Below the pieces are notes generated by a model. The model had not been told where the DNA came from. It made no database searches and was given only the letters and a program-made list of their open reading frames with translations. Below, piece after piece: positions 3,619-63,200 of a stretch of DNA of 64,000 nt; positions within the stretch are counted from its first letter, which is position 1; each line of letters begins with the position of its first letter. Origin of the DNA: Amoebophrya sp. A120. Taxonomy: Eukaryota > Protista > Dinoflagellata. The position numbers were made by a program, and so were the translations under genes. The stretch lies in contig CAJINV010000002.1 of NCBI GenBank assembly GCA_905178155.1, positions 11,262,634 through 11,326,633 on the forward strand. The letters run 5' to 3'.

Positions 3619-5348
3619 CTATTTTAGCCACGAAAATTCCTTGTTCGAGTGTCGGCGTACATTAAGGGCGCCGGGGCTTTTTTCTTCTACGATAGTGGCG
3701 CTGTACTTGTCCATGTCCTCTGCTTCCGAATTAGTGTCGGCATTCAGAGTAAAGTTTCCGTTGGTGAGACTGCGTGCGTGAAATGGTGGATCGTCGACGA
3801 AGGCACGTGAAACGCTCAAACGGTCGGGAAATCTGACCTCCTGCCCGCCCACTTGGCCAAATTTTTCTGCCACCAGCCGGATTTGGTCGACATAGTGAGG
3901 TTTGTTGTCGGCGAATCTCATCTGCCAATACTGGTCTCCGAGTGCGGACGCTGCTCCCGCAGTGTACGAAGTCTCGCCAGTTCGGGCCAGCCTATATGGC
4001 CACCTTCCGAGAGGCATTTCCAGTGGCCCCACAGCACTGGCATTCTGATTGAGCACGTACTTATCCGCATTCAAACCGCCGACGTCCCAAGCTCCATCGG
4101 AGCGTTGGGGATAGGTGGTGCTCTGGACCGCGCGCATGCCGTCTCCGTGGTATGCTTCCATGACGCCGTATATGAAAACGCCACAGATAGTGAACTGCGA
4201 GTCCTTCCGAATGCGAATCTTGTTCAGGTTGCGCTTGATCTTGATCACAGTGCCACCCGTGTCGAATAGACCGGTAGCCGGGTGTGCCGGTATGGAAGAG
4301 ATAGTCCCAATGTCAACCCCGGTTTATCCTGTGCAAAAGTATCGCACTCGTAGTAATTGCAGCCATGCACTACAAGTCTTCTACTTTTTCTCAAAGTAAA
4401 TCCGCATATACAAATTTCACTTGTATTTCTAATGCTGAGGAAATAAAAATTATTTGTAATGCATTTTAAACGAGTGCGAATGCGATACTTTTGCAATGCA
4501 TACGGTTGCGTCGCTGTCAATGACCATCTCTGCGCCGTTCAAATCGGTCTCCTTTTCGTAGTGGTTAAAAAGCCGGATCGAGGACACATAGCGTATCGCT
4601 GAGTTTTTGAAAGCCGCTTCCCAATAGAAGCTTGTAGCTGTGTCAGGTCCAGGTGTGCTGCACGTGTTCGTAGCATCGCTTTTTCGCGTAGTCGAAGTCA
4701 GGAAAGTGTCAAAATTCGCGCTTTCCTCCTTTGCAAATGCAGTTCCATACTTCATTGCCTGGGCTGGGCCGCTGAAGGAGTCGAAGTCAACACTCCCCTG
4801 GTCCGTGGTGCCCTGTGCCGTGTCAAAAAGAAACTCGTCTAGTGTATAGCCAAGGCAGCTGTTAGTGTTACGTTCTCAGCGCCGTCAGCGACTAGCGGTA
4901 GTTTCGCCGACGTGAGTTTTTTTTCACGAAAATCGAGCAAGAGCCAAAATCAAAAACGCTTCTTCCTCTTCGCCGTTTGGTGCATCAGATAAATTTCGAA
5001 CAGATTTCAGTACTTGTAATGCGTCACGACTACCAGCTACTTTGTATTTCTTTTTTTTTGATTTTGCAACTGCAAGAAAATATAAAATGGAAAAATAAGG
5101 GGGACACAGGTTCGTCTGCATGTCCACCACGTTGGCTCGAGTGTACCAGCAGTAGAGAACGTAACATCTCCACCGAGGGGGCCATATAGTGGCACTTCGA
5201 CTTCCATGGTGGTGGTTTCGTCGGTGGTTTTCTTTCCGAATTCCGTAGTGGTGGGGGTTGCAATGTCGAGAGGAAAATCAAAGCCACGCATCCTCCCGAA
5301 GGGAAACACATACCAACAGGCAAGCCCGCAAATGCTGGCCAACACCAC
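3619..5348 (-). CDS. Protein with two F5/8 type C / F-type-lectin-like (galactose-binding fold) domains, paralog A
   Basis: FYWEAAF..RYVSSIRLFN..LNGAEMVID...ICGVFIYG followed by YWQMRFAD..HYVDQIRL. Colinear with the gene at 13505-16144, including a shared EVEVPL motif. Frame restored by removing the introner at 4325-4502. Confidence 0.7.
4325..4502. mobile_element. Introner, family A (178 bp), TSD CGGTT
   Basis: TATCCTGTGCAAAAGTATCGCA...TGCGATACTTTTGCAATGCATA; CGGTT at 4320-4324 and 4503-4507. Removal gives IDSDAT-GVDIG, matching paralog IDSEIS-GTNIG. Confidence 0.95.
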
Positions 5349-7244
5349 TATATTTCATAATGCTCGACGAGAGAGAGCCGACGTCTTCCTGTTGTTTGGC
5401 CCATGCTTAATTGTGCACGTGCACGCCCACCTGACTACAGCTATAGTACTGCGAGTGACATCAAGAAACTGGGCGCTGTGTTGCGATGACGTACAACCGA
5501 TGCCACGACGCAACTCCTTTTAAATCTCCCTCTGGACGAGGTGGTATCATACATAGAGTTGCGTCCCTATTGAGTTGCTGGCACGCAAATAAAAATGCGA
5601 GACCCTCGTCTGCGTCAGCGTCGACGTGTCATGACCATGAGTAGACCCCAATATCTCGGCAGGCCGTGGCTTTATTTATTTCAATCTTTCTTTGATACAC
5701 AACGCTTGTGTCCTCGTACACTTCTATCCCGGCTAGAGCGACGAAGTCGCTGTCCACCTTATCTGTATTCTCCAGCTTCATTTTGCGAAACGATGCTTCT
5801 ATCCTTCCATCCTCAAGAAAAATCCCTCTCCCCCATCCCCACGGGAAATCCGTGCGTCAGGAGTTACAGCTTGGACGCCCATTAGATATAGGGGCGGTGA
5901 ATTTCTAGTGATTTTAGAAGGGGAGTAGAATCGTGGGGCTGGCGTTTCGGGGGGTTATGGTTCGCGAGGCAAGGGCTAGCACAAATAGAGGTAGCGGCGG
6001 CATTGTGCTCGTCGCCAAGGCTCCCCCACATTGAAGGCAATCCCCCTCGCAACCTTGCCCAACCTAGCACACTGCTCCGCGTCTTTTTTCGCGAAGTAGA
6101 CCTTTTGGCTTCTTCATGATCTTCTCCATTCCTTGTTAACGCTTCAACTTCCGTGTTCAAATTTTGGACAACGAAAATCGCAAAGAAAAGGCACTGCCAT
6201 CGGGAAAAGCTTCCATTTAAACATCATTCCCCATGGTATGATGAGGATGGTTTTTTTCCTAAAAATCATCGATGCGGAGCGCCGTGCTGTTTGGCGCCAA
6301 AAAGCGGCTTAAAAGTACCCCGCTTACCGATGGCATGCTGCGATCGGTGAATTTAGTGGTGAATTTAGAAACGGCAGGCCGGTGAATTTAGTAAATTTCG
6401 GCAATTTCCTAAATTCACCCCGAGCTGATTCTGGATTCCAGACCATCATCAAACCGGTACCCATTTTGCCTTCGTTTCTAAATTCACCGGAGCCGAAAAA
6501 CCAAATCCAAAACGATCGCCCCACATTTGCTTCAAAAAATGCGAAGCCTTTGGCGCATGCACGCACAAATACGAAAGCAACAAAATGCAAGCACGCCACA
6601 AGGTCGCGCAAGACATTAAATTGTTTTGATTTACCGAAGCAGAGAGCATCTGGCAGACCAAGACGCCCGAGCATCTGGCAGGCCCAGTGGCTTCATTTTG
6701 CGAAACGATGCTTCTATCCTTCCATCCTCAAGAAATATCCCTCCCCCATCCCCACGGGAAATCCAAACGACGAAAGCGCGCGGAAACGATGATAATCGAA
6801 GGCAGTGCTGACGCGCGCTGCAGTCCTCGTCGCGGGACGACCTGCGACGGTCACACTGGCGAGCAAGAAGAGAACCCGGCCGGCACAGCAAGCTACAAGT
6901 AGCAAGCCGCGCAAGCCAAGCTCTCAAACCCCACAGAGCCAAGCCCCTTTTCCGGGCGCTTCGTGCTCTCTCCCATGCCGGCCAACCCCCGCCAGCAGGG
7001 CGGGGGCGCCGGTCTTGAGTACTTTCTGCAGCAAAGCATACAGCGCGGCCTTTTTCTTCAACTTGGAGCTGCCAAAGCACAGAAAAAAGCCGTATTTTCT
7101 GTTGTTCAAAAAAGCAGAATGTGGCGCAAAAAAGGCAGTCGAATTCGGGAAGAAAAGGCGCAAAAAAATGAACACGCCCAGTCACACAATACCGTCGGTG
7201 AAGGATATTTCTATAAACTTTCCAAAACCTCTCTCCGATCTGTA

Positions 7245-7381
7245 AAAGTGACACGCACTGACACGCACTCACTGCGTGTCAATTTACAGAGCGGTTTGAC
7301 AGTACACACTCGCCACAAACGAGAAACAGGTCGTGTTTGGCGAGTGCGTATCAGTGTGCGTGTCGCTCTGCGTGTCACTTT
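7245..7381. repeat. MITE-like palindrome built from TGACACGCA units
   Basis: AAAGTGACACGCA (7245-7257) / TGCGTGTCACTTT (7369-7381), with inner CACTCGCCA/TGGCGAGTG arms. Confidence 0.75.
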
Positions 7382-7892
7382 GCGTGTCAAAAAAAAGGTG
7401 TAGTGCGTATCACTCTGCGTGTTTGAAAGCTCCCAAAAATTTGCCGAAAATCTACCAAAATCCGAAGGAAAGGCTCAAGGAAAGGGACAAGGGAAAGAGG
7501 CCGCTATCCCCCATCCCCATCCCCCATCCCCCCAAGAAAAATCCCTCTCCCCCATCCCCACGGGAAATCCGTGTAGATTTCGTGCAAATTGCAGAGATTG
7601 GTTTTCTTCATCTCGTGCAGCTTTCGTGAAAATTGCACAACGTAAGGGGCTTCAATCTACACCATAAGAAAGCGAAAGCTCACCACGGGCGACTGATTCC
7701 GCTCCAAAGGGATCTTCGGGGCCTCTGAGACTGCAAAGACCCTTCTCCAGAAGAAATGGCCGGCGGGCCCAGTCAGATGGCTGCCTTTCTAGGTAGACAG
7801 GGCGTTGGGCGCTGGCTCGAAATGTACCCAAAAGGCACCACTGCCGAACGGCCCGACTTATGGTTCTGCTTTCCCCCACCCCTTTTGTGACC

Positions 7893-8143
7893 CCCATGAT
7901 TTTCGCAAAGCTAGACCGGAAAAGTGGCTCCGTGCCGTGCTGATTAGGCTCATAAAGGGGCCACCCGTTTTGAGCACGAAATGGCTTCGCTTTGTTCCAT
8001 TTTCGGCACCCCCCTCCCCTACCCATGATTTTCGCAAAGCTAGCCCGGGAAATTGAAAGCGTGCCGCCGTGGTTAGCCTCATAAAGAGGTCACCAAAATG
8101 CCGCCGCTTGGCGGATGAGCTGTGATTTTCGCAAACCTAGACC
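7893..8143. repeat. Degenerate tandem repeat, period ~100-130 bp
   Basis: TGATTTTCGCAAA(G/C)CTAG core in units starting near 7893, 8022 and 8123. Confidence 0.8.
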
Positions 8144-9091
8144 AATTTTTGAACAGCATAGCATCGAGGAAAGTGTCATAAATGTGGCGCCATTTCGGCC
8201 AGGGACTCAGGCCAGTGCCCGGACGCTTGCGGAGACAAGCGGCTCCGGTTCCTCCAACCTTGGAGTTGCTTTTTTTGCAAATGAATTGTCTTCATGACGA
8301 ATGGGAAGACGAAAGCACGCAGCGAGCTTGTCGCGGTGATTGCTGGCGCAAGTTGCGTAGTGCTTGAGATGTTCCGCGAAGGATGTGTGAAGCAGGTAGA
8401 CGCCAACCAGCGACACAAGCCTCCCAGCTTCGGCGCCCACGCTGGGCGCCATCCTATCCGCCACACTCTGCGAGGGAAGTCAATGGGGACGAGCCGCTAT
8501 GGGAGAAAGTGCCGCTTTGGAACAGCAAAGGTTAATGGTTACCAGTACTGATGGAAACAACGGGCGGCCTTTGAGTTACCTCGAGCTGCCGCACTGTGTC
8601 CGCCCCACGTTGGGCGCTTGCAAGTTTCGTTCCAAAAAAAGGGAGAAGGGGCCGGGGTCCCTATAAAAGCTTTGGAAAACATTGCGCGGCCAAACGCGTG
8701 GCAGCGGCGATGCTGGCGCGCGAGCCCACCGAGTACGAAGATAGACGCGACCGCGCGACGGCCCCCCAAACGGCTAAAGTGTTGGGCCAAGGTGGTTGGG
8801 CACGTAGCGGGCGTGTTTTCATTGGGCCCAGGCGCGGACACGTTGGGTCCGTAGCGATGACCATTTCGGAACCCCGGGAGCCCAGATAATTCTGGCTCCA
8901 GGTGTTCTCTTTGCCCTTCAGGTCACACGGGAAATCCGTGTATTAAGGTCGCGCCCGGAGGGCGATATTGGTAACCAAAAGCGTGCGCGAACATCTAGCC
9001 AGCGTTAAGGCGCGCCAACCTTGTTCAAGCTGGCCCCTGGCCCTGACCTGTTCGGGTCATCTCATCGGGGGCTTCCGGATTTCTATTCAAA

Positions 9092-9203
9092 GCTTATCGC
9101 AGGAGCCTGCGGGCCGCCGCGGGCTCCACCACTTCCCCGCGGCCCTAAAGGGCCGCGGACAACTACTGTCGCCCGCGGCGGCCCGCAGGCTCCTGCGATA
9201 AGC
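9092..9203. repeat. Perfect 33-bp GC-rich inverted repeat with internal 10-bp hairpin
   Basis: GCTTATCGCAGGAGCCTGCGGGCCGCCGCGGGC 9092-9124 / 9171-9203; CCGCGGCCCT-AA-AGGGCCGCGG 9137-9158. Confidence 0.95.
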
Positions 9204-10980
9204 ATTGAAGTTATGCACGGCGGCACGCTGTCCAGGTAAAATGCAGAAACTTCAAAAAGTTGCACCATTTCCTTCATTTCCGGCAGCCCTTTTGGGCCAC
9301 CCAAATCGGGCACTTCTAAGCGGGGGGAGGGTTTCAATTTGCGACCCTCAGAGACGTCGAAAACCGTGGGGGGTGGACACACCTCCGCGGGCTTGATGGC
9401 TGCTTTTTTTCGTCCAATCTCGACGGTATGGGCCGTGTGACAATTTGAAAAACCGCCCTTGAGCGGCAATTTTCAAGCGGCTTCCGCTTTTTCACAAAAA
9501 AATGTCATTTTGAATTACGAAGCGGCTTTCGCGTCATGCACGAATTTGGTAAATTTTGTCGCCCGCTTGCATGCTGCGAAAAGTTGCGTTTTTTAAACAC
9601 TTTTTTTCAATTTCCAAGCGGCTGGAGCTGCCCGGACGTGACGCGTTTTCCGCTATAAAACGCATCACACCATCGGCCCTTGCCGAAAGTGCCACTATCT
9701 TTTTTCAGATTCAGAGTGGGCGGAGCTGCAAAAATGCTCTTTTTTACCCTTTTCCCACTTGGTAATTGCTGTTTTGGCTGCTTTCGGTAAAATTCCCAGA
9801 AATTCTGCCCGACCCGCTTTCTGAAGGCAAAACACACTTGATAATGCCCGATTTTGCGAGTGGTTGCATACCCCCGAGCTCCTCCCATATGGTAACGGCA
9901 AAGCCTTCGCGCTGCGTTTGCGATGGATGAGCATCTCGCAAAGAGCGCTTTGCGCGCGGGCAAGCCCGCGCGCAAAGCTTCCTACCTCCATCTCTCCCAT
10001 CCCTACGGGATGGGGGAACCTCAAAAACCCGTTACCCCTCAGCCTACCCCGTAGCTGTAGGTAATCGTAAAGCTTATCCCTCGCATCGTTGGTTTTTTTT
10101 AATCACGGCCTATAGCTGTTATAAGGGTTTTCACATTACCAAATCCTTTATTCTGGCTTTTAGGCGTGTGCTTTTCTTTTGTGTTGTTTTCTTCATACCT
10201 TCGATACAGATTTTTCTACACGTTGAAGTCGAGTAGTATCATCGTACTAGTCGTCGCGTCATCGTAGTAACCGTTAGCATTTTCCAGAAGACTTGGGCCA
10301 ACATCGTTTTTTTTTACAATCGTACTCGGTTGTGCAATTCGTAGCACCATCGTGTTTGTTTGTCGTGTTTTTTTTGTCGCTGCATTTTTTTCTGATGTCA
10401 CGGAAGCTGGAACTCATGCAACTTTTTCTGTGAAAAAGTCGCGAACGTTGAGGGATGGAGTTTGTAATTGCCAAGGCTCCATACGACACAACTCCATACC
10501 TCGATTTCCGGCTTGCGCATTGCGCATTCCATTCTTCATGGAATTTGCAATGCGTGAGGAATCTGGAGTGCGTGGCCCATGGGCTTTCTAACTGCGCTAC
10601 CCAGGCGCCTCCTTCGTTTCAAACGAAGTGGGCGCCTTGGTTGCTGAGCCCTGAAGCCTGCAACCTTTTGGACCCAAAACAAAACCCCTTCATGAAGACC
10701 AAAGAAATGCCTTTTTTGGAAGCAACAAAAAGCACAACAAAAAAAGCGCACTTTTTACAGCAAAGAAGTGCACTTTTTTAACTCGTTTAAACTGGGTCAC
10801 CAACATGGGTCAGAAAACAGGTCAGAAAACACAATAAGGAAATCACAGCGTTAGGTGGGGATAAGCAAGAGCGACTTTGTGTTTTCGTTAATGGTGTTTT
10901 TGGTAGCATTCTTTAACATTCAAAGTTGACTCAGTCGGACTGTAATAAAAAATGGCATAGCAAACGCTATGAAAAAGTGC

Positions 10981-11043
10981 ATGGCGAATGCCATAAGAAA
11001 CGCTATGGCGAATGCCATAGAAAACGCTATGGCGAATGCCATA
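10981..11043. repeat. 24-bp tandem repeat, three self-palindromic units
   Basis: (T)ATGGC-GAAT-GCCATA x3. Confidence 0.9.
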
Positions 11044-11079
11044 AAAAAGTGCACCCGAACATGATAAAAAACAATACGC

Positions 11080-11568
11080 CGAAAAGACAGCGTTAGGCGC
11101 GGATAAGCACTTCAAAAGAAGCACTTTTTGTGCCTCGGAATTTCCGAAGAGAACAACTGGAGATGAAGGTGCAAATTGTCCGCCAAGGTAGTGCCCGCGC
11201 GTCTCCGCGGAGACGCTGGCGCACTACCTTGGCGCCCACTTTTTTGTTCCTCTCAGGAACGAGAGCTGGAACTTTCTCGACTTTCAAGTCGGCAAAGTTC
11301 CAGTTCCCGCTCCTATAGCTTTCATTTCTTGAACGCTCCAGCTCGTGTTGACCTGGAGCGTTCTCTTTTTGAACGTTCCAGCTCGAGTTCCGCAATTGAG
11401 CGCTCCAATTCCTGCGCGCTGGAGCTTTCATACAGAGAAAGCTACAGGAACGGGAACTGGAGCTGGAACTTTGCCGCGCTTTTTTTTGATCGCAGAAACG
11501 TGGCTTTTTGAGCACAAAAAAGCAGGCATCGTTGGAAGCGCTTATCCGCGCCTAACGCTGTCTTTTCG
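11080..11568. mobile_element. MITE-like element, 29-bp perfect inverted repeat
   Basis: CGAAAAGACAGCGTTAGGCGCGGATAAGC 11080-11108 / 11540-11568; internal GAGCTGGAAC/TTCCAGCTC repeats; a degenerate extra arm near 10846. Confidence 0.7.
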
Positions 11569-13504
11569 CTATGCTGTTTTTTGACTCGTTTTGTGTGGCG
11601 TTCTTTGACTCGTTTTGTGTGGTGTTCTTTCTATTGTTTTTCGATGTGTTCGCGAACCCGTTCCCCCACTCACTCTGTGTGCAGTTCGTCACGAAGTGAC
11701 AAACTGCGCGCAGAATGCTGGCAACGGAGCGCAGAATATGCGCAGAACCTCGCGAATGACGCGCAGAAGATGCTTTGCGGCGCGAATGGTCGCTTTCGCA
11801 CGAGTTGCGACCTTCTGCGAGCGAAATGGGGCTCGAAATGAGCTGGCGGCGCCACTGTATGTTGGCGCTGACTCTGAAGGTCTCTGCGACTAAAATAAAA
11901 ACCAACAAGAAAAATCCCTCTCCCCCATCCCCACGGGAAATCCGTGTAGGGCTTGGGATGTTCCGTGAAGGATGTGTGAAGCAGGTAGACGCCAACCAGC
12001 GACACAAGCCTCCCAGCTTCGGCGCCCACACTGGGCCCTGTCTGGGCCCACGCTTAAGGTGGGCAAAGAAAAATTTGATTTTTGAAAGCGAAAGCATTTT
12101 TCATCGTTTCAAGAAAAATCCCTATCCCCCATCTCCAGGAGCGCTCGAGCTCGTGCACGCAAGTATGAACGGAGAACGAAACCAAAACGAACCATTTTGA
12201 GCCTGTCTAACTGTCACATTTACCGTCTAAATGTGGCATTTAGATGGCGCACCGTCGCGCGACAGTTCCCCGGCAGTGCCAACGGTGCCCAGATTGGCGG
12301 CACGCGCGCGCAACATCCCAGCGCGACATCGATGGGCGCAAGGCGTCAAATTGGGCTGCGAAAGCCTGCCATCCGCCTTCTCCGATGCGCTGCAAGCCGG
12401 GACTCCGAGCGCAAAACGGAGGCGCATCGGCGGATCAGTCTCTCTGCAGACTCAAGCAACAAGAGGGCGGGCGGCGCGGCAAATGTAGCGAAGGCTAAAC
12501 GGGGATCAACTCCGAAAGAGCACGCCCTATCAACTCCGAAAGAGCACGCGCCGATTTGGTGGCGGCACTTCGCGCGCCGCCACGCTTCATGTTTTCCGTT
12601 CAGTTCCTGCCGGGTTGCATGGGTGGGTGGCAAGCTCGCGGGAGGCTTTGAAGACTTCTGAAAAATTTTTGGGAACTTTGGACGACAGAGGGGTTGCGGT
12701 GCCGGGAATTTTTTCAAAAAGTCCCTTCACCCTCTCACCCGCGTTCTATTTGTCTCAAAAAGTTTCCACGCCCCCAACCGCGCTGGTTCCCGCGCAAAAT
12801 TGTTTTCCCGATTTTCTCCTTTTTGCGCCGCCATCGATCGCCCACGCCCACGGCCGCGCCGCCCCATCAATGTGAAAGGCGGAAAACAATCGCAAACCAC
12901 TGCGCCCCAACATCCATCCAGACTACGCGCCCCAATGCGAATACACATGCCCGGTCGCTGTAGTTTGAAAGGGCCACGGGGGCCAGGCGCCCGCGCGCCG
13001 AGCGACCGGCCAGCCCCCGCTTTCCTCCTCAAGAAAAATCCCTATCCCCCATCCCCACGGGAAATCCGTGTATCAGGAGCGCTCGAGCTCGTGCACGCAA
13101 GGGAGTCGACGATTAGTACGTGTACGACCTCACTACATACTAGGACGTGACTCATATACTTAACAAGGGAACAGCGCATGTAGATCCTAAGTCTGGGTCG
13201 TGGGCCTCTGGCGTGACTGACCTGCTCGGCATGACATGACGCCGGACTTCGGTCGTTTCTGTAGGACAACCGGAGGGGCAGCAAATGACTTACGTCGATG
13301 AGACTAGTGCTCGTTTTCGTGAGATCAGCAGCAGTTTTTCTAGCTTGCTATACAAGGAGCGACGTTAGCATGGAAATTCTTCCGCACGTAGCTCCGCCTC
13401 CATTGCCGAGGTCCTGTCGACGTCGTCAGTCGTCCTCTTAAAATTGCGATGCACATGCCAAACTGACGGAAGGCCACAGAAGGCGGACCGCGCACGCGCC
13501 GCAT

Positions 13505-16144
13505 TTATTTTGTGTTGGTGTGCGACCTGTTGAAACTGAAATTGTACGAAAGTGAGGAGATCGAAACAATGCTTGCACTAGCTTCAATCGGCGCGATGGC
13601 GTCTACGGATTTCCGCTCGTTCATTTCTACCGGGACGAGGGCAGCTTTTTCATTCTGATACTTCACCATGGTTCCCCAGGGATAGGTGTCGATATCCGTG
13701 GAGTCACTTGCTGCCGCCGGCACGTGCCGCGTGTCGCCATCGTCGAGTTGGAAGGTTGTTCCCGTGGTATTTGCCGGATCCTCATCCGCATCGCTGTCAA
13801 AGTAAGCTCTCAGCTGGCTCAGGCGAATTGGGTTCTCCCGGTGATTCAGCAAACGAATTTGGTCTACGTAGTGTTTTTCCCCGTCAGCAAACTGGAACTG
13901 CCAGAAGTTTTTCCCACTACCAGCAACAGAGTTCATCGTTTGCGACACACGGTAAGGGTACATTCCAAGAACGGTCGCAAGCGCCGCGTCCGCGGCATAG
14001 TTCTGGTTGATTCTCGTTGTGAAATCAACTTCGTTCCACGTGGAGCTTATGGGAGTTTCAGGTGCGATGAAATTATGTACTCGTGAAATAGCACGAAAGA
14101 ATAAAAGATCACGCAGCTTCCAAACTGCACTTTGCTCGATAGGACAAGCTGAGTCATCGTGAGCCCGCTTTGATCTTTCCGCAAAGATTTCGAGTTGCCT
14201 TTCCTTTTCTACGGTGGTTTTCAATTCATGCATGGACATCAGCATGATCCATTTCCATGTGCAGATTTGCAGCTTTTCAGCACTCTGGCGCTTTGTTTTC
14301 CACCTGGCACCTCCATACAGCTCTGCGTGGCGACCAGCTGGGTCCCTGGGTACTTTCGCATCACTCCGAACAAAAATATGCCGCAGATGCTCAAAGGATA
14401 ATCCGCGGCGTTCCCGTACTTTTTCAGTGTGATCTTGTTCAGGACGCGGCCAATCTTTACTACAGTACCCCCGGTAGTGAATATGCTCGTTCCCGCGTGA
14501 GCCGGCATAGAAGAAATTTCGCCGATGTTAGTACCACTGATTTCGCTATCGATCAGCATAGTGGCTCCGTTTAGACCCGCCTCCTTCCCTTCTTCATTGA
14601 ATAGCCGAATCGAGGAAACGTAGCGACTACTGTCGTCCTTAAAAGATATTTCCCATTTTTGAGCATCGTGGTCGGCCGAGACCGATCCACCTGGCGCACT
14701 ACAGGTATTGTCGGCTGTGTTCAGGCGCTTCGCCCTCGTTGTGTAAGTACCTTTTCGATGGTAGCAACCGCTCGATCAAATCAAAATACTTCGAGATTAC
14801 ATTTCTTTGCATACTGAGAAAAAAAATCTTACCATAGTTGTCATCCCAGAGGTTGCCGTAAGTGAGCGGCTTTCCAGAAGTGCTGTAGCTATCTTTATCG
14901 CCGTCGCTTTGATCCGTGTTGAAGAGATCCGGATCCAGTGGCACTTCGACCTCGATTGCCTCTACGAGTGGGGTTTGGCCAGGGCGGAGGACAGTAACGG
15001 GGTCACGTTGAACGGCCAACGACAAAGCGGTAGCTTTTGCTTTGTTCGTTTTCAGGTCGAACGCGATTTCCTTCGACTTCAGACTGCTTTTTCGCATGAT
15101 ATTCATGACGAACAGCTTTCGGGCAAGCGCGCCTTTCTTTCTTTTTCTACTCCTACTACTCATTATTTTCTTGCTCTTTGAGGCAGTTCTTGCACTTGCA
15201 CCAGCTGCTGCTGCAACGACAGCGTCGGTTTTAGTAGAGATTTCGGCTCCTGCACCGCTCTGGACCTCTTGCTTCGTCATGTCCAATCTCTGACCGCGCT
15301 GCTGCTTCTTCACCATCTTCAAAGCGGACGCTGACTCGTGCTTGGTATGTGGCTGGATCTGGCCCTCCTGTGGCTCTCTTTTCTTGGCTTGCACTGGAGC
15401 CGCAGCGGTTGGAGGTTTTAGGAGATCTTTAAACTTCTGCAAGAAGGAAGCAGTGGTAGAATACTGGGCGGTCTGATCATGACTGCGCCGACCACTGGCT
15501 TCCGGACCCACAGGCGGGATCTTTTCGCCTGTGCGGGAGCCCAGCATTGGGCGCTCACTACGAATCCGGGAGGGACGAACAGAATCATGAACACTCCAAA
15601 CGCTCGCGTTTGCGTCAGATACAACTATCGTGGTAGCAAAAACGAGTGCCGTCGTGAAGACGCGTCTGGCCGCACGATGAAGCTGCAGACTATCATGCAG
15701 CGGTGGCTCGTTGACGAGACCTGCAAAGTCTTTGGTTCCCCAATTGTTGGCGTCACGACGCGTTCTCCTCCTCGCTGCAGAAGGACGTCCACCTCCGATC
15801 TGCTTTGCCGGCTTACCAGCTGCATCCGGTAGCTGCCTCCGTCGACAGGCGGCACAGCTTCCACGGCCCCCAGATGGATAGAGCAACAGCATAGAGCTGG
15901 CGTCAGTGGGAGTCCTTCGCACAGCCGCTTGGGCCTGCTGTCGCCGCGCCGGAGCCGCAGTGGCCGTCGGGTCGAACGATGTCCTTCCTACGTGACACCC
16001 AGTTTTGGTCTCGACGTCGGGCCACGCGTCTTTACTGTCGAAGTCGCCCTTGCGGCGACCGCGACGCCCTCCACAGGTAACTGCATAGCCCTGTGCCGGA
16101 TCCTGGGTCGCCTGCGGCTTGGCCATGGCCCCACCATCTTGCAT
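13505..16144 (-). CDS. Protein with hydrophobic signal/TM segment, Lys/Ala-rich linker and two F5/8C-like domains, paralog B
   Basis: RRVFTTALVFATTIVVSDANA; KWEISFKDDSSRYVSSIRLFN..LNGATMLID..ICGIFLFG; FWQFQFADGEKHYVDQIRL. A canonical GT-AG intron at 14751-14832 gives YG-TYTTRAKRLNTADNTCSAPG. Confidence 0.75.
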
Positions 16145-25599: not shown

Positions 25600-26045
25600 G
25601 CATACGCATTTCCAGTGATTTGTTACTTTGACGAGAACTTGAAATGTGCAGCTGCGGCTGCCTTGCCAGTAGGCTACATGATTCCACGAGCGATGATCGG
25701 GCCTTCCTCGCTCGGGGATGTGAGCAACTTTCGCAACGTCTTGCCAGAAGATGCTAGAGGGTCCTACTTCAAAATCAAAAAGAAAACAACAACTGGAAAT
25801 ATTGAATCGGTAGTTTGATGTGGAGCAGAATGGACTAGGATATCACGCAAAAAAGTGTTAGCGGTAGCGAAACTTTTCATCTCCTATGTACGGCATACGT
25901 GCAGAGGCGGTTGGGATTCGTATCGCACGGAACGCACGTTGTTTGCGACTTTTTGTAGTTTGTTTGCAGGAGCCCGCCGTCGATGCACCAATCTCACTAA
26001 CGATACACACTTTCTTGACCGATATACAACGCCCACTTTCCAATA

Positions 26046-42912: not shown

Positions 42913-43754
42913 TCAGCAAAGCAGGGCGTCTGAGAGGCGTTGAAACGGTATTCTGCCCACTTGGTCTGGGTCCAGCTCGCAGATTATAGCTGGCTCAGGT
43001 GGTCGCGCAAGAAGGGTCTCAACTACAACTGTCACGATTTGAAGCTTTTGGAGATTTGTGATGACAAGAGCTGCATACACAGGCCCATCCTGCTCAGAGG
43101 AATTCGGGTGGAAAGGTATGGCTCTGGAACTGGAGATGTTCATCTTCATCAAGATGAAACCGCATGGTATGAGCAGAGTCAGAATCCAGTATTCAAATTC
43201 GCACTGTAAGTGTTATTCATGCAAGACCAGCTTTCGTTGCGGCGGCTGAGATTGATGCTTGTAAGAACACCTGAGTAGGCTGTACGAGTCAAGGTGTCTG
43301 CCTGTTCTGCTGTCAGCTTCTCTCCGAGGTTGGTCGAGATGTACCTGATTACCTCCATGGACACTGTGTCCCTTTCGTCGATAAACATACGGAAACGCTC
43401 ACGCAGCACGTCCGGCGAAAAGACGCCGTCGCGAAAATTCCGGAGGATGCATTTTTGTAAGATCTCGCCGAAGTGCTCGAAGTTGACGCCTTTATTTTTC
43501 TTCGTACTGAACTCAAGGGGGATCCCGTACGCACCCTTGGCCTCCACCATCGCCGCGAATTCGGCTTCTGTCACCAGCGCCCCGCCGGCTTGCAGGGCAA
43601 GAAATGTGTTCTGTTTATTTAACACGCCCTTCCCGGTCTTGTCGTAGTACATGAACACCATGCGGTCGCGAGCGCGACGCTTCTCGAACGAAATGGACTC
43701 GAATACACGTATGGAAATGCCGAAAAGCTCTATCACCACTGGAAGTTCTGGCAA
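42913..43754 (-). CDS. Calmodulin / myosin-light-chain-like EF-hand protein
   Basis: [64 protein letters not shown]; compare calmodulin [21 protein letters not shown]. Start uncertain. Confidence 0.85.
42985..43284. mobile_element. Introner, further TIR family (300 bp), decayed TSD
   Basis: TATAGCTGGCTCAGGTGGTC vs revcomp end TACAGCCTACTCAGGTGTTC; removal restores the last EF-hand. Confidence 0.8.
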
Positions 43755-48732: not shown

Positions 48733-49535
48733 GTGTTCGTGAAGGTCACCCTTTTGCGCAGTAGCAGCACCTCCGGGGGTCCGCCCAGACGTGCTTGCTT
48801 TCGTCCGCCGTTTATTGTCAGCGGACGCTTTGTATGAGATTCTTCAGAGTGCACAACTACGCCCCCTTCGCAGTAAGTACTTGATTCAAAGGCATGATCT
48901 ACGGCGACATCACTGTCATTTCTTCTTGGATTTCCTCCCACAGCAGGGGATCCGCACTTCTGAGGGGCTCGTTGGCAGCGGTGCTGTTAATATAATATGG
49001 AGGAGCTGTCCAGACCCACGACCAGTCGCCAGAGCGATAAGCGAAGCTTAATACAGAATTCATTGTCCGGAACGATGCAACGGCTAATGAATGCGAAAAA
49101 AAAGCCTCAGCTGCATCATTCATGCATCTCTATGAAAATTCGACAAGCTCGTGGTACTGCTGCTCAAGTTTCCGGAAGTAGTTGTGACGCTCATCTAGAG
49201 TGCCGCGACAAGACAAAGAACGAGTGGAGAGGTAGACTTTAGTGTCGTGCATATGACAAATCAGCTCGGGGAGCATCAGTTGTATTCGTGCACTCTCATA
49301 TCTGTTTTGCTACAGACGTAGCGATTCCGAGTTCGTGCTTGTGTGGATGAATTGCGGTCACGAGATCGAGCTCCAGCTTTTTTGTGGGAATCGTGCTGCC
49401 TACATAAATGTGCAATGCAAAAGTGCTGTCTCAGCCCCTCCTGGGAAAAATGCAAAAGAAGAACTTGCGATCGTTGGAATGTCGGAGCAGGACACATCTC
49501 AGGAACAAGTTGCTCCATTGTCATTTTTGTGGTTT

Positions 49536-50700
49536 TATCCTGTGCAAAAGTATCGTACTCGTATAAATACGCTACTGGCATGCAAATAACTTCTCACCAA
49601 CTTCTCACCAACTTGTGATCAACTTCTGACCAACCTTTTCACCAACTTCCCAGCTGTTGAGAAGTTGGCGTAGACCGCTTGCCGCGGTTGTTCGGAAGCT
49701 TGATGCGGAGCTGAAATCCACTCGAAACTCCCCACAAGCTTCTAGCTAGGACAACTCAAAAGGAAAATCCCGGGCCTCGATTCGTGGCCGCGTGCCTGCG
49801 CAGTCACGATTCGGCTCCCGTGATCTTCGGTTGCTAAAGGTTGTGAAGGATGGCTTGAAAATATCTTTTTCACGTGCAGCTGGATCCTTGCGGGATCCTC
49901 CACATAAAAGGATTGCTTTGGGCTTTTGGAGGCGTCATGAAAATTCTTGCATGATGCCTCCAAAAGCTCGAAGCTTGTCGCGAAAATCGTCAGGATGTTC
50001 GTCGAGAAGCTGGTGGGAAGTGCATCGGGAAGTTGTTGAGAGGTTGTTGAGAAGTGGAGCACTGATTTGCGCATTAATTGATGCAGGACGCACGCAAAGT
50101 CGCTTTTTCTTGTGCAAAAAAATAAAAGGCAGCTTCTCAATTAATTAACTTCGTGAATTATACGCAGTTAATCAATTAGCTAATCAATTGACGCCGAGGG
50201 AGAATTGCACATGTCCAAAGCTTGTCCGCCCAAGCCGCGCGCAGCTCTCCATCGTCGAGGGAAGCCGTCCTTCGCTTCCGTCTTTGATGGCTTCACGCAG
50301 GACAGGTGCGTGCGCGCAGACATCACGGCCGGCCGCGCTGTCTGCCGCCTCTTGTATATTACGGCTTTGCGCGTGATGCCGTCGTGCTAACTGATGAAAC
50401 TGCACTGCAGATAAACGGGCAGAACGAGAGCGCGATCCTCGTTCCATTTATCTACAGCGCTGTTCCTTCTAGCTCTTGCAGCTGCAGTGGCAACTGCAAG
50501 CAGCGAGCACGAGATAAACCGCAGCGACGGAGTGGCGCGACGTCGAGGCGAGAACTACGCCAGCACGTCGCGCAACTTCTCACCGACTTCCGCACCAACT
50601 TCGCGACCGACTTCCCAACGACTTCCCAACGACTTCTCCGGCAATTTATGCACAGAAACGCTAGCGGATTTATACGAGTACGATACTTTTGCACAGGATA
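49536..50700. mobile_element. 1165-bp non-autonomous TIR DNA transposon sharing family A termini, TSD GGTTT
   Basis: Perfect 33-bp TIR TATCCTGTGCAAAAGTATCGTACTCGTATAAAT; GGTTT at 49531-49535 and 50701-50705; subterminal ~11-bp CCAACTTCTC-like arrays; no transposase ORF. Confidence 0.95.
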
Positions 50701-51051
50701 GGTTTAATACGGTTTACGCATTTACAAATGGCAAGTCTTCCAGCAGTCTTCATCTTCTTCTGTTCTCTTCCATATCCATCCCACTCTCCATGATGAAAAA
50801 TACAGAAGAAGTAGAACGGAAAACAACTACTACCCATTTCTGGAAACAATGTTCATCGGCATGTAAAGCCTGCTCCGAAAATCAATGTGGTTGTAACAAG
50901 TGACATGCATAGCGAAATTTCAGGTTCTGGCTCTGACTCTGTGGACCACGGACTGTTGCCAACTGTGGGTCGTCGAGGACCATGACAACATCGCTAGGAC
51001 GAGAATGGAGTCGAGCGACTGATGAACATCCTCTTCTTCTAGCTTGCATCT

Positions 51052-53736: not shown

Positions 53737-55160
53737 TCACCGGCCCAAACAACAACCGGCAAGGGCGAGGGCAGTCAGGACGCTACCGGTCGTCCAAGGT
53801 TTCTCCGTCGCCGTGTCCGCAACGCCCCTCGCCGTGGTATATATGTATCCTCTGCAAAATTATCGCACTCGTATAAAGATATTAAACAGCAACCTTGCAA
53901 CATGAAAGGAGATTTGCTTTCCTATTCACCTATTCCCGAATCTGCATCATAAATTTTCCACTTCCAGTTCCACCTAAAGATATTATTCATTTTATACGAT
54001 ACCTGTACGATACTTCTGCAATGCATATCACTGTTGTAGCAACTGGGTCGGCTGCGCTACGGAGTGTATTACACAAGTTGCATTGACGGTGGCCTCTCCG
54101 GACGAGCTCCGACTGATTGCTTCCAGCTTGCATGAATGCGCTTCCAGAAGTAGCCGCAGGACTTCCAGAAGACGTGGAAGCGGAGGCCGCAGCGCACATT
54201 GCACAGTTCCACTGCTGCGGATTCAAGCGCGCACCAGTGTCAGCGACCTGAGCGGCGCATTGTGGCGGCAATTCGTCGCTGCTGTCAATGTATCCATCTC
54301 CATTCGTGTCCAGCCTGACAAACGCGATCGCCGCTAGGATGCCGATTGTGGGGTCACTGTCCATCAATGCCTTTGTCCTTGTCCACGTATTCCCCTCGGT
54401 CGCCTTCCACAAACGCCGCAGCGATTTTCTTGTCCAGGTCTTTTTGCTTCTTGGCACGATCCTCGCTTGCTGCAGTCGGACCCCCCTCGTCCGATTCGGA
54501 CTTTACCACCAGGTCCTCGTAAGCGTACAAATCCTCGACGCTCCCGGTGTAAATCTTGCGCAGGTCGAGTGCCGGAGCAGCGGATGCAGTGCTTATTTCC
54601 GACGCGGCAACGTCCGCGGTGAAGGAGGGCCCGCTTTGCTGCAACGCATCTCCAGAGGTCGTAGTAGGTCCGGATGGAGGAGCTGGAGCTGCTCCCGATG
54701 AATCCACAGGCGCGATTTCCAGCGCAGACAGCTTGGCAGCCAGAACCGCACCAGCGGAGGTTGCTCCTGCTTCCTCCGCACCTGCAGCGGTTGCCCCACT
54801 GTATTCAGACACATCAAGACCCTGCTGACCACCGTCCTGCGTCACTGCGATGGCATTCGTTATCCCTGCTGGAACGACACCAGCTTGGTCTACGTAAAGA
54901 GAACCTCGCAGATGGGGGAGCGTGACGTCCGTGCCCGCGTTCCCGGTCTCCACGGCCCCGGCGGTCCCACCGGAGCTAGCCGGTTGCCCCTCCTCCGTGG
55001 TGGGGTCATCAATGCGGTTGCGCTGGAACTGCTTGTTGGCCGAAATAAGATAGCTCAAATGATGGAACGCAAAAAGATAGGCGTGCATTGCAAAGCTCAG
55101 AGTGTTGCTACAGCTGGCTTTCGCCAGTGCCTTCCGCTGTTGTCGCGCCGTCATCATCAA
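53737..55160 (-). CDS. EF-hand-containing Ala/Gly-rich protein with hydrophobic C-terminus
   Basis: Canonical loop AFVRLDTNGDGYIDSSDEL; inferred C-terminus TGSVLTALALAGCCLGR*. Confidence 0.7.
53846..54027. mobile_element. Diverged family A introner (182 bp), TSD lost
   Basis: TATCCTCTGCAAAATTATCGCACTCG...CGATACTTCTGCAATGCATA; join ATTV-YTTARG. Confidence 0.8.
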
Positions 55161-59000: not shown

Positions 59001-59050
59001 TGCAGCTTGTCGCACAGTTCAGGACCGCTAAAATAGTCCAGGCTGTCCAC
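56034..59050 (-). CDS. Multi-exon protein of unknown function; possible divergent SH3-like segment
   Basis: ORFs 58670-59050, 58027-58605 (ELRPLRKGDVVMLL...WWVLQENY), 57591-57809, 56724-56942 and 56034-56597. Confidence 0.55.
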
Positions 59051-60252
59051 CGATCCTCTGGAAAAGATCTTGCACCGTCTTTGCGATCACCTAAACTACC
59101 TACAATAGCTGTAAGTAATATGTCAGAATGTGAATGATACTAGGAAGGTCTCGAGCGTATTTCTATTTTGGGGTCGAGCGTACTTCTAATGCAACATCTG
59201 CATGATCTGCCCGCTCTATTATACTACACCAGTTTACACCAGCAAGAAACTATGGGGTCGTCAACGTTGTATTTGCCTCAGACCGTAAAAAAAATTCTTC
59301 GCGCATTTTTTCGCGGCGCAAAGCTAGTAAACCTGTGCACGCTAGTGAGGGGCTGACTTGAACGCGGTTTGTTTTACCTAGCTTGTCAGCAACACTGCTC
59401 CAGTAGGTAAGTGAGTATTGACGCGAAGGGGGGCGGGGCGCTGGGGGTTCTTCTGTGGCTGATGTTTCCACCTAGAAAACGCCGGGCGCGCGCAATATTT
59501 TTCTCATTTTTCCGGATTGCTCTCTCCGTGCAGCTATTTGCCGCTATGGCCTGGGTCAGCGTGTGAGGCTGGAAACGCCCCGCGAGATGTCTACACAGGC
59601 CCTGGCCTCGTCGTCTCTAGCAGGCACCACGCACACATGTTGGCCGCGAAGGCCTTTCCGGAGCCCTTCCAAAAAGGGGGAGCCGGAGGGGTGCCCGGAA
59701 CCCTAAAAAAAAGCCTATTGCTTTTTCTTCGAATCACGATGGTGCTACCCCTCCCCAAAAGGGGTCCCGGAACCCCTCTGGGAACCCTTCCCGAAAGGCT
59801 CTCGGGCTTTTCGCATTTTGCCGAAAAAGCCGCAAAGGCAAAATGCGCGCGCGCCTGCCGGTACACGCGTGCACAGCTGCGCGACATTAGAAACAAGGGG
59901 AGGCGCAGCCGCGGCCGATTCCGTTTGCGCCCTCGACTCCGACCGACTTGCACAGATTGAGGCCCATTGTCTAGCGGCTGGACTGCAAGAGGACCTGCTG
60001 CAGCACCTCCTGGCTGCAGGGGCGCTCCGAGGCAAGTCCGTGGAGCAGCAGCGCCGGATAGCTCCGTCTTTAGCCACTGAGAAGCGCTGCGAATAGGCTA
60101 GCGATTTCATTAGGTGTGCAACATAGTGGGGGGCTATACGTGTGCAACATGATGGATATCAAATACAAAAAAAGGCGCGCGGAAAATTTTTTACAGCTTG
60201 AGGCAAATACAAGTTTGACGACGCCATAGAAACCTCGCGTCCAGCAACAGCA

Positions 60253-63200
60253 TCAGCAGACAAAATTTCCTCTTTGAAAAACACAGCAAAGCGCCCGATG
60301 ATTCAAATTCTTTCGTACACAAGCAATGCATTTTGTGTGTGCGTGAGCGATGCTTTTCACTTTTGCAGTGCGTACCACCGTGAAAATGGAAAACGCGCTG
60401 CCATCCAGGCCTCCGCCGCTTGGACTTTGTGTACTCCCTGCGCCGGACGGTGAGGCAACTGATTTTTTTTCGTTGCTCGAATGCCTTTCGCTGCTTCCTG
60501 CGCTCGTCACATGGTCCGCTACCTCTGTTTCTGGCCCACTGGTGGTCGCGGTAGATCTGGTGGCTCCCGTTCCAGCAGTAGAGGCAGCTTCTACGTCTTG
60601 TTGCGCGGTGAATTTCTGTATTGACGCCGTTTGCAGCGGTGTCACCACTTCGGTGGTTTTCTTCGCAGCGATGCTTCCGTCCTGATCTACCGATTCCTGC
60701 TTTACTGCAAGGGGTGACGCGGAAGAGCTTTTTTGCTCGCCCTCGCCCGCAGCTTGGCTTGCATTGGGGCTCGCAGGGGATCTACTTCCCGAAGGACTCG
60801 TCGTCTGGTGAACAAACGAGAAAGGGGTATCCTGTGCAAAAGTATCGCACTCGTAGTAATCGCAATCATGCATTACAAATCTCCATCCCAAGGCAAAACA
60901 GCATGACAAATTCCATTTGTCGTGCTGAGCTAATTTGTATTGCAATTACTACTAGTACGATAGTTTTGCAGTTCATAAGGGGTTACCTCCAACAAGTCGT
61001 GGCCCTCCTCGACTGGAATCTCGGATGATATTACGCTTTTGGTTTTTTCGTCAACTGCATCGAATGCAAAAAACGTTATGTTCTGAACAAGAGTCAGCAA
61101 GTTCCACACACCGCTTTTTGAATGCCTGGTTGCTGTGAAGTGTGTGCCTGAGCTTGAGCGTCGTGAATCATGATCATGGAGCATGCATCTTTACGGGTTT
61201 CGCGAGCGCACCTCACTCCGTCGGAATCATGCCCCTCTGGCACGAGAAGCTCGGCGTTTGAACAAATTAAACCATGGCACGACTCCTGCTGCGATTCATG
61301 CGTGAATACAATAGAAAGAAGATGAGCAGCTTCTTAATGTCCCTTTGTCTTGTATAAATAAACAGACGTTGACGTTCTACTTTTTAGCTGCGACTTCAAT
61401 GGTTCACCTGTTATCAGTGAAAGCACTGCCACACTACCCAGACACGTTTTGCAAATTCGGCGTGGATAACCCGGGTCGTTGATGGCCGGCCCCTGCTCGG
61501 TCGTGGGCGTATTCGATTTCGAGCCGGACGTCTCGAAGGACAGGGTTACGGAATCCGAAATGATGTCAACGTCAAACAGGTCGGCATCGAGGGAGGACTC
61601 AAACTTCAGCTCGTGCTGCTGTTTGCAACTCCTCCCTTGCATAGAGGTCGACGACGAGGGGGAAGAGCTTGTGGGTGCGGTCGGGTCGAAACTAGGATGG
61701 TGGTCCCCAGCGGACTGCCCGGCGGACTGGAGCAGCTTTCGCGAAAAGGTGTTTCTGTCGTTGCTCTGTTGCAGGTAGGCCCGGCTCGCCTCCGAGGGCG
61801 CGAAGCCCCCGAAGTATTCTTGCATACTGCCATTCTGCTGCTGGCGCTGAAGCATACCCCCTCGTTCGGACGTTGCGACTCCGCCGCCGACTCCCCCCGT
61901 ATGCATTGCAAAAGTATCGTACTAGTACAAATTGCATTACAAATTCTTTCAGAAAGAAAAATGAAATTTGTATTGCTAATTCAGGTAAAAAGGTAGGTTT
62001 GTCATGCAAGATTACAATTAGTACGAGTACGATACTTTTGCACAGGATACCCCGACGGAGACTTCGATGTCCGCAACCCGGGAAATCGGATCTCGTCCTC
62101 CAGGTCAAAGCGAAACAAGTCGGCGGTCCCTGGCATATGGAACGTTAATACTCAGGCGGAATTTTCTGTATCCTGATGAACAGTCTTTCGACGATGCGTT
62201 CTTTTCGCTTCAATTTGTATGTATCAAAATCGTATTTCTACTTCCGACCCTTTGAGCCTCTTGAAGATGAGAAGCTGCGTCGTTGCGCCACGAACAAACC
62301 TGTTCCGCCGATAAGTACAGCGAAAAGCACCAGCTGGCGCTTTTGTTTCTCCTCGCATGATCTGCAAAAAAACTGCTCGAGCAAGTTAATAATTTGCTTC
62401 GAATCGAACGGCAAAGATCGCCATTTGCTGCTCAAATAAACATATATCCGATTTGACAAGGGTAGGGCGAAAAGAGGTACGTCCAACCAGGGTCGTGTGT
62501 AAGTGTGATCGTTACCGATCGGTGAAGAGAGCCTGCATGCCAGATTTTTACTAGGAACATCTCTTTCGTTCACATCAAAATGAAATTCCCACCACCTGAA
62601 GATGTTTTGATACGGTGCGAAAAAATCATCCTGGTCGTGTTCATCCATTCCGTCAAGGCACGCAAAAGGGTCCTGGTCCAGCACTTTTGGGAAAAAAGAG
62701 GAATCATCTTCCTGCAAAGTCCCCGCCTCCCTGGAGGACGAGGCGGTACCAATACCACCGTGACCGAATCTGCCAGGTGGAGGTGGTGCGTCGGTCTTGA
62801 ATCCAAAATCGAAGTTCGGCTCTGCATCAAAAGGGTCGCTGCCAGGAGCCGCTCCCGCGACGTCCAAGGTGGGAAACAAAGCGTCCTCCTCCTGCGCGTC
62901 AAAAGTGGCGAAGTCCTCGACTTGTTCTGCCGTGGGAAAGGCTGCAAAGTCAATGCTATCTCCCGTCTCATCCTCGACACTAAAATTCATAGCGCCATCT
63001 AATGCAGCATCACTGCCCACAACTACGCCAAGGCCAGAGGGAGGATTTTTGCCCTCGTTCTGCTGGTGTTCGTCGGCTGTTGCAGTTTCCGAAGGCATGG
63101 CGGGAGCGGCAGGAATATTGAACGTGGCGGAAAATAAATCATCAGCATTGTTCGTATCGGACTGGCAAGTGGATGAGGTGAATGTATCCTCGTCCGATTT

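Follow-up and report, generated by a model that had tools for sequence, protein, structure and literature searches.

The window (the whole stretch of 64,000 nucleotides analysed here) comes from Amoebophrya sp. A120, its ORF 43182-43769 matching a protein of this organism with 100% identity over 89%. All the genes seen in it are on the minus strand, as are the introns and elements described below. Its exons are interrupted by elements that typically run from TAT to ATA, carry terminal inverted repeats (TIRs) and are flanked by 5-bp target site duplications (TSDs). The initial annotation had counted about 21 of them, of 150-563 bp. Such elements are indeed present, but both figures were too low, since 20 elements of 158-7853 bp are supported by RNA and about ten more by the reading frame, the latter including 49536-50700, 59251-60228 and 59052-60374, all three with exact TSDs. 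The eight elements singled out before (4325-4502, 17167-17502, 17633-17999, 22516-22724, 22911-23083, 45614-45771, 60828-60977 and 61900-62049) were all located with exact 5-bp TSDs, the left end of 17167-17502 reading AAT instead of TAT. The window holds 7 pairs of TAT..ATA with an exact TSD and a TIR of at least 15/25, whereas 100 dinucleotide shuffles gave 0.03 on average and never more than 1. As for the protein domains whose frames were said to be restored by removing the elements, EGF and PAN were recovered with Pfam, the EF-hand is weak (E 0.002, plus EF-hand Pfam matches on the homologs P0002 and P0003), and no lectin family was found among 134 ORFs.

What interrupts the exons are the introners that Farhat et al. 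(2021) described, a report that the initial annotation had cited, and the class is therefore already known from the A120 genome (PMC7789003). The published introners share with them an inverted repeat starting with TAT, about 7 variable nucleotides and then an A-run (at least 3), together with 3-5-nt direct repeats, non-GT-AG borders, RNA support and multiple copies, with no difference in kind. Within the window, the RNA-supported elements start with TAT in 17 of 20 cases and have A at positions +12 to +14 in 16, 16 and 14 of the 20. The elements at 4325, 45614, 60828 and 61900 are 70-79% alike and have many matches among the loci of a second assembly, the metagenome JACKZZ01, which is the source of all the loci (at least 151) obtained by pattern scan; element 22516-22724 has 12 matches there, of up to 89.6%. 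An exact 5-bp TSD was found in 94 of 126 paired copies of this assembly and a longer one in none, and among its loci listed we found no orthologous empty sites of at least 200 bp. The direct repeats of the window copies are partly decayed, and the mismatches are spread evenly over all 5 positions.

Junctions in the RNA-type contigs

The RNA evidence consists of assembled contigs from one sample of one study, in which minor isoforms drop out. The RNA label of the runs (X3-X6) is our guess, with no RNA entry on record, and run X1 served as the DNA comparison. The RNA-type contigs skip the elements while the DNA run keeps them, and because the canonical GT-AG intron 30005..30308 is also removed in these same contigs (RNA joint in the GT-AG register) we regard them as spliced RNA. 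The joints listed amount to 15 of 202 in a first mapped stretch and to all but 3 in a second. Five of the eight previously named elements (17167, 17633, 22516, 22911 and 45614) are skipped, in agreement with the RNA-level removal postulated before. For the other three (4325, 60828 and 61900) removal in silico restores the frame; 60828 and 61900 are absent among the 15 of 202 joints listed and 4325 lies outside the two mapped stretches.

In the 20 non-GT-AG junctions of these contigs the removed length is always the element plus 5 nt, free of scars, which bears out the precision claimed earlier. What we add is that a single register accommodates all 20: on the transcribed strand, the cuts fall 1 nt before TAT and 4 nt after ATA (k=1; the 1/4 register). 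Any other k is permitted by 13 junctions at most. The cut could be placed inside the TSD because elements with decayed duplications give unambiguous junctions, although for 5 decayed elements the ends were placed with the junction already known. Four junctions have no shared letters at the joint and give the register exactly, namely 18118..18499 (element 18122-18498, with a weak TIR), 30951..31421 (30955-31420, where the loose end at 30950 matches from 31422 on), 46026..46283 (46030-46282) and 53842..54028 (53846-54027, adjacent pieces of one RNA contig); DNA contigs bridge the last two.

The remaining joints are compatible with this register within wider limits. The widest are those of 17163..17503 (element 17167-17502, seen in 4/4 runs) and 17629..18000 (17633-17999), both 0-6, followed by 18950..19112 (18954-19111, 5' end TAC; -1 to 4), 19157..19390 (19161-19389; 1-5), 26908..27337 (26912-27336; 0-4) and 25357..26051 (25361-26050; -1 to 3). 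Narrower ones are 23137..23499 (23141-23498; -1 to 2), 23961..24528 (23965-24527; 0-2), 24805..25223 (24809-25222; -1 to 1), 18547..18881 (18551-18880, ends TAA..ATC; 0-1), 21744..22192 (21748-22191, ends TAC..ATG; 1-2) and 46899..47177 (46903-47176, bridged by a DNA contig; 1-2). RNA joints were also obtained for 22512..22725 (22516-22724), 22907..23084 (22911-23083) and, in an EGF-repeat gene, 45610..45772 (45614-45771; joint in X3, depth 0 in the DNA run X1). The largest case is an intron of 7858 nt, 5804..13661 (element 5808-13660, full of nested repeats), whose loose RNA end at 13661 matches 5773-5802 in 4/4 runs with one side covered; its removal gives a frame of 777 aa in register 0 or 1, and it appears to follow the same cut rule.

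Under a uniform register of 0-5 the single-register fit has a probability of 3e-7. The register had been predicted before the second stretch was mapped, and the 16 junctions held out there give 3e-5. The bookkeeping of the contigs is exact (6830 = 6830 nt), and one RNA contig lacking 14 consecutive elements restores frames of 1156 aa and 376 aa. A GT-AG register is found in none of the 18 tabulated junctions, nor in any equivalent register of the eight named elements on either strand, as the initial annotation had noted for two of them. We consider it very probable that the fixed register represents the dominant product.

Other introns were assigned from contig depth or from the frame. For 14044..14318 (element 14048-14317) the depth deficit is 275.2 nt against 275 expected and the frame is restored; the canonical GT-AG intron of 82 nt at 14751..14832 (GT and AG read from the sequence), used for comparison, gives 82.0 nt. 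Predicted introns are 4321..4503 (4325-4502, 178 bp, exact TSD), whose removal restores the frame and a gapless alignment with an insertion-free paralog near 14.5 kb; 42981..43285 (42985-43284), in a gene of the EF-hand family that becomes colinear with the homolog P0002 on rule-based removal; 60824..60978 (60828-60977) and 61896..62050 (61900-62049), both with an exact TSD and a restored frame; and 59048..60375 (59052-60374, TAC..ATC, exact TSD), where the frame is open for 80 codons on each side once the element is removed. The latter element contains a nested one of 978 bp (59251-60228). The 1165-bp element 49536-50700 (49532..50701), with a TIR of 25/25 and an exact TSD, lies upstream of an ATG, at a distance of about 9 nt; RNA depth is 0 in the bin 49708-50358, and no joint was found among those listed. 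The segment 38002-38131 is predicted to be retained. Rule-based removal of the candidate 2898-3694 gave no paralog-like frame. Further candidates checked by frame were 35474-35688, 39965-40324, 40991-41223, 57252-57653, 57776-58092, 62169-62313 and 63647-63777.

Bases at the intron ends and the excision machinery

The introns have T+2, A+3, A-7 and T-6 in 20 of 20 cases, T+4 in 17 and A-5 in 16. Among these 20 we found no consensus at +1 or at -4 to -1; the 3' end lacks AG or any other consensus, and the surroundings of A-7 do not show a U2-type motif. U+2 and A-7 tend to stay constant where the bases they pair with differ, and the second assembly shows the same pattern (p 0.0007-0.02). There, substitutions at TIR positions 1/3 number 0/10 at the 5' end vs 7/2 at the 3' end (p=0.0007; 235 strand-called of 388 elements, among the loci listed), and those at position 2 number 3 and 5. 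Over 6 settings the asymmetry has p=0.002-0.02. An initial version of the test, with strand called element by element, gave a weak result (1/4 vs 5/2), after which the thresholds were changed. The gene strand in these loci is a codon-model guess that agrees in 178 of 197 cases. Both orientations of insertion are tolerated (30 vs 35). For 15 of the 20 introns, the duplex formed by the intron's own ends comes first or second out of 20, and in 3 of 20 own ends pair no better than mismatched ones; +1 and -4 can pair in 8 of 20, with no rule. Purines are slightly favored at +1 (0.66 vs 0.56, p=0.014, uncorrected for 5 tests). The two canonical donors of the window also have U+2 and A+3. N-TATCCT presumably resembles a U12 donor.

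The best explanation for the whole of these observations, to which we give a probability of about 0.5, is that the elements are non-autonomous copies of a TIR transposon with 5-bp target duplications, inserted in A120 exons and likely removed at the fixed 1/4 cut by a relaxed, hairpin-guided spliceosome. The TIRs would pair and bring the intron ends together, the machinery would take U+2 as the donor without requiring G+1, A-7 would be the putative branch point, and distance rather than an AG would determine where the 3' cut falls. Since the offsets 1 + 4 equal the length of the TSD, any new insertion would be erased from the mRNA in either orientation, which would explain both the invasion of exons and the single type of end. 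Put as a code, N/UA(U)-stem...stem-AU(A)-NNNN/ (slashes marking the cuts), A120 would read only U+2 and A-7, whatever the orientation and over as much as 7.9 kb, a formulation for which we see the odds as even. That the enzyme is the spliceosome we hold to be an evenly balanced proposition. The U1 snRNA went undetected in A25 and A120, where the other snRNAs and nearly all spliceosomal proteins were found, and it is present in Kv, a strain with canonical introns. A tunicate provides a precedent. Farhat et al. (2021; PMC7789003), in the accessible part of their paper, report no minor spliceosome. Several of the above observations speak against this explanation: the missing 3' consensus and U2-type motif, the slightness of the purine bias at +1, the three introns whose ends pair poorly, and the lack of extra G+1 in elements with weak TIRs.

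A quite plausible competitor, which we put forward tentatively, keeps the same fixed register and attributes it to a spliceosome-independent endonuclease and ligase binding the end of the hairpin, a mechanism proposed for the nonconventional introns of Euglena and demonstrated, in an imprecise form, for SOS splicing. The lack of consensus at +1 and -4 to -1 fits this well, and so do the fixed unpaired spacers around the stem, the 3' one longer, which mirror the N3-CDG...CH'G-N5-6 arrangement of Euglena. In animals, pairing of inverted terminal repeats is by itself enough to trigger RTCB-dependent excision, and the excess of G+1 expected as compensation in elements with weak TIRs was not seen (7/29 vs 65/205). 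On the other hand, the two fixed bases, U+2 and A-7, are not pairing partners and occupy the places that a spliceosome forming a lariat requires, and SOS splicing produces indels and uses multiple sites, whereas the 20 junctions here are all scar-free.

It is far less probable that the cuts vary within the TSD, with the one register seen being due to chance among few junctions or to the majority form kept in contigs. The legend of Fig. 3 in Farhat et al. does describe the cuts as variable, within the accessible part of the paper, and rare variants would be lost from contigs of one RNA sample. Nevertheless, four exact and several one-sided junctions converge on k=1 (with the held-out set at the probability given above), the predominant classes in their Table S4 all have T at +2, and aligners scatter junctions over 6-7 registers where TSDs are exact. 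Least credible of all is that the joined forms reflect template switching of the reverse transcriptase across hairpins, or empty DNA alleles. Direct repeats and hairpins promote template switching and both are present here, in runs whose RNA label is a guess; but the junctions without shared letters (18122, 30955, 46030 and 53846) and those with weak hairpins are equally exact, 14 consecutive elements are missing from one contig with restoration of both frames, and DNA contigs bridge elements.

Relation to known systems and to the A120 gene models

In the accessible sections of Farhat et al. (PMC7789003), the text describes the splice sites as variable and the border as undefined, and the fixed 1/4 register and the U+2/A-7 rule, absent from it, are what we add to the published class. 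Their Table S4, as far as accessible, is already compatible with the register and gives NT-NN for 9/9 predominant classes of A120 and TT-NN for 9/9 of A25, whose inverted repeats begin with TTA, so that both strains would have U+2 and A+3. The S23 legend, which places the inverted repeats 1-5 nt from the splice sites, may describe the same mode. According to the same sections the analysis covered introns of 40-1000 bp only, a range that leaves the 7.86-kb intron outside.

The nonconventional introns of Euglena (Nomura et al., 2025; PMC12501133) share with those of A120 a terminal stem, fixed unpaired spacers with a longer 3' one, a suspected MITE origin and coexistence with GT-AG introns; their spacer length is required and excised circles are reported. 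They have, however, a CAG..CTG motif, spacers of 3 and 5-6, and next exons that begin with a purine, in contrast to TA(T)..AT(A), spacers of 1 and 4 and no preference at the exon start in A120, and the lineages are unrelated. The window introns do not follow the Euglena CDG/CH'G motif with spacers of 3 and 5-6 nt. In SOS splicing (Zhao et al., Nature 2025; PMC12779559), which requires AKAP17A, CAAP1 and RTCB, DNA transposons flanked by inverted terminal repeats also leave the mRNA without GU-AG, but imprecisely, at multiple sites and with indels, and the insertions are purged, whereas the dominant form in the A120 contigs is scar-free and fixed. Fritillaria borealis (PMC13326754; PMC11282704), from the accessible parts of these reports, likewise has a MITE-derived majority of non-GT-AG introns, handled by an altered spliceosome; it keeps a terminal consensus (AG-AC, AG-AT), while the terminal bases are free in A120. 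Among DNA transposons, IS3EU/GingerRoot (PMC10045372) share the TA..TA termini and short TIRs with the window elements, but usually have a 6-bp TSD, a length found in none of the 126 second-assembly copies. An autonomous partner of this kind would carry an IS3-like DDE transposase. Six long elements with TIR and TSD, potential autonomous partners, were found; five ORFs from four of them gave no Pfam match, and the only homolog of a 415-aa ORF (L059:476-2934) was itself.

The fixed 1/4 register, together with the two invariant bases, bears on the splicing of about 65% of A120 introns and would make A120 a third case of hairpin-measured RNA excision, beside Euglena and SOS splicing. It offers a reason why only elements with a 5-bp TSD invade exons; if the code is true, a splicing ruler of the host would erase a whole class of transposons from the mRNA. 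Should lariats branch at A-7, this would be a spliceosome with no need for U1, G+1 or AG, and A25 would share the nUA donor. The 1/4 rule can also be used to correct A120 gene models, and the public A120 protein P0001 runs into such an intron, ending at a premature stop.

Scar-free removal of the elements from RNA

The TAT...ATA elements, bounded by terminal inverted repeats (TIRs) and 5-bp target site duplications (TSDs), are removed from RNA scar-free and in a single register. The RNA evidence comes from assembled contigs of one sample in one study, concerns minus-strand genes (every gene observed in the window is on that strand) and covers two stretches, 44500-64000 and 13400-31400. In the former, one contig of the RNA-type run X3 skips three elements of the EGF gene, and another contig skips the element 53846-54027, while the DNA run X1 contains none of these four joints and its contigs span 3/4 of the elements. 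In the latter, the joints are common to all four RNA-type runs (X3-X6); of 18 joints, the 15 listed comprise 14 non-canonical ones and one GT-AG, and the RNA contig is 6830 nt long, the exact sum of its 15 exons. Removal restores frames of 1156 and 376 aa here, the longest unspliced frame being 359. Both RNA-level removal and frame restoration had been proposed in the initial annotation; the former is supported by scar-free joints in RNA-type contigs, with none of the first stretch's joints in X1, and the latter by these two frames. Loose ends of contigs provided two extra junctions, 30950 joined to 31422 and 13661 joined to 5773-5802. One RNA contig (16597-28649) spans two ORFs, a 1156-aa PAN-domain protein followed by 376 aa, which may reflect read-through, UTRs that overlap, or two transcripts joined in assembly.

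The finding is real and has RNA support, but as a class these elements are already known. Across 89% of its length, ORF 43182-43769 shows 100% identity to a protein recorded under the name Amoebophrya sp. A120, and the available text of Farhat et al. (2021, PMC7789003) describes, for A120, non-canonical introns whose inverted repeats of 8-20 nt begin TAT and whose direct repeats measure 3-5 nt; the class is therefore already in print for this genome, and the introners to which the annotation had pointed are indeed the same. The eight elements it named are present and all carry exact 5-bp TSDs; in no register does any of them yield GT-AG. Strict matches in the window numbered 7, versus 0.03 in shuffles. 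A 20-nt TIR motif, when scanned against metagenome contigs, gave at least 151 loci, all in one other assembly (JACKZZ01) among the matches listed. Among the 157 matches listed there, 126 were pairable, with an exact 5-bp TSD in 94 and a longer one in none; the paired copies listed were mostly 135-170 bp long, and orientations among the matches listed were balanced (30 vs 35).

A fixed register and asymmetric ends

In the first RNA stretch, three junctions with decayed TSDs placed the cuts 1 nt before TAT and 4 nt after ATA on the transcribed strand. We stated this 1/4 register as a prediction ahead of the second stretch, holding out 16 junctions. The removed length equals the element plus 5 in all 20 non-canonical junctions, and only a 1-nt overhang on the 5' side is compatible with 20/20 (next best value 13/20). 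Under a uniform 0-5 model, the chance of a single register is 3e-7 overall and 3e-5 for the held-out junctions. TAT and ATA ends are intact at all four exact junctions (18122, 30955, 46030 and 53846). In the weak-TIR intron 18122-18498, a second TIR-like end lies inward, 30 nt from the 5' end (18469-18498); the cut nevertheless falls precisely at the outer TAT.

In the same publication (Farhat et al., 2021), as far as available, the Fig. 3 legend gives splice sites as variable and their border as unknown, and nine of nine predominant A120 classes in Table S4 are NT-NN, the outcome expected of the 1/4 register. Its text on the commonest direct repeat and the Fig. S23 legend possibly describe the same mode, so the register is perhaps partly visible in its figures. 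An explicit statement was not found in the text of the literature searched, reviews and later papers included.

Counting from the 5' (+) and 3' (-) intron ends, T+2, A+3, A-7 and T-6 are invariant in the 20 introns, T+4 (17/20) and A-5 (16/20) vary, and +1 and -4 to -1 are without consensus. In a plain stem the partner of +2 is -5 and that of +4 is -7; each pair thus consists of one fixed base and a drifting partner. The asymmetry was tested in the second assembly by means of a symmetric detector in which the terminal triplet was left free. When strand was called per element, the signal was weak, substitutions at TIR positions 1/3 being 1/4 at the 5' end vs 5/2 at the 3' end (193 of 379 listed elements); locus-level calls and looser thresholds gave 0/10 vs 7/2 (235 of 388 listed elements, p=0.0007), and six settings gave p=0.002-0.02 among the matches listed. 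Simple strand-biased mutation does not account for this, since the comparison is between identical bases on one strand. Each intron's own partner end ranked among the best 2 of 20 for pairing in 15/20 introns, and pairing was poor in 3/20. What is added here is the fixed register together with the U+2/A-7 asymmetry; the text of the literature searched gave no earlier statement of either, and they make the splicing mechanism testable.

Candidate enzymes and mobiliser

A terminal hairpin would bring the intron ends together, and the cut position may be measured from it. A relaxed spliceosome is the enzyme with a probability of about 0.5: U+2 and A+3 are the same as in the window's canonical donors, the TTA start of A25 elements also fits them (Farhat et al., 2021), A-7 could act as branch point, U1 is reported as unfound in A25 and A120 yet present in the canonical strain Kv, and there is a reported tunicate precedent. 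Removal by a nuclease and a ligase appears somewhat less probable; the introns are without AG or a U2-type motif, and G+1 compensation is absent. Also in its favour, the stem with fixed spacers has the same design as Euglena introns (PMC12501133) and, more loosely, resembles SOS splicing (PMC12779559). As 1 + 4 equals the TSD length, each new insertion would be silent under the spliceosome and the nuclease-ligase alike.

The TA..TA termini resemble those of IS3EU/GingerRoot, whose TSDs, however, are usually 6 bp (PMC10045372) instead of 5. Integrase-like ORFs have been reported in a TIR family of A120 (Gozashti, 2025). No transposase was found among the long TIR- and TSD-bearing elements and ORFs that we examined. 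The second-assembly locus L059:476-2934 is a 2459-bp element with an exact TSD, TIRs like those of the window families and a 415-aa ORF, for which there was no Pfam match and a homolog search returned only itself.

Nested elements and gene models

The joint from 13661 to 5773-5802 implies an apparent 7858-nt intron (5804-13661), whose splicing gives the 777-aa frame, with the far exon placed from the loose-end match. Nested repeats and foldbacks fill it throughout, and 58 nt (exon end and element start) are duplicated 915 bp inside, at 6690-6747, a near-copy that departs from the joined exon end in its first letters. Elsewhere, a 978-bp element sits within the outer element 59052-60374, from which it differs in TIR, and is flanked by an exact TSD of its own.

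The public A120 protein P0001 runs into element 42985-43284 and an early stop; rule-based removal would restore the C-terminus present in its homologs P0002 and P0003. An element-like stretch at 38002-38131 begins with CAT (U+2 lost) and, at 135 nt for the element plus 5, is in frame and stop-free within a 961-aa ORF, making it, from its sequence, a candidate retained, exonised element. The candidate stretch 2898-3694 has TAT..ATA ends and no matching TSD; its rule-based removal fails to give a paralog-like frame, and it may be two elements or nested ones. Paralogous protein modules that match no Pfam family are dispersed over 1400-5000, 13500-22400 and 30300-31000; they bear elements at differing positions and are useful as empty-site controls.
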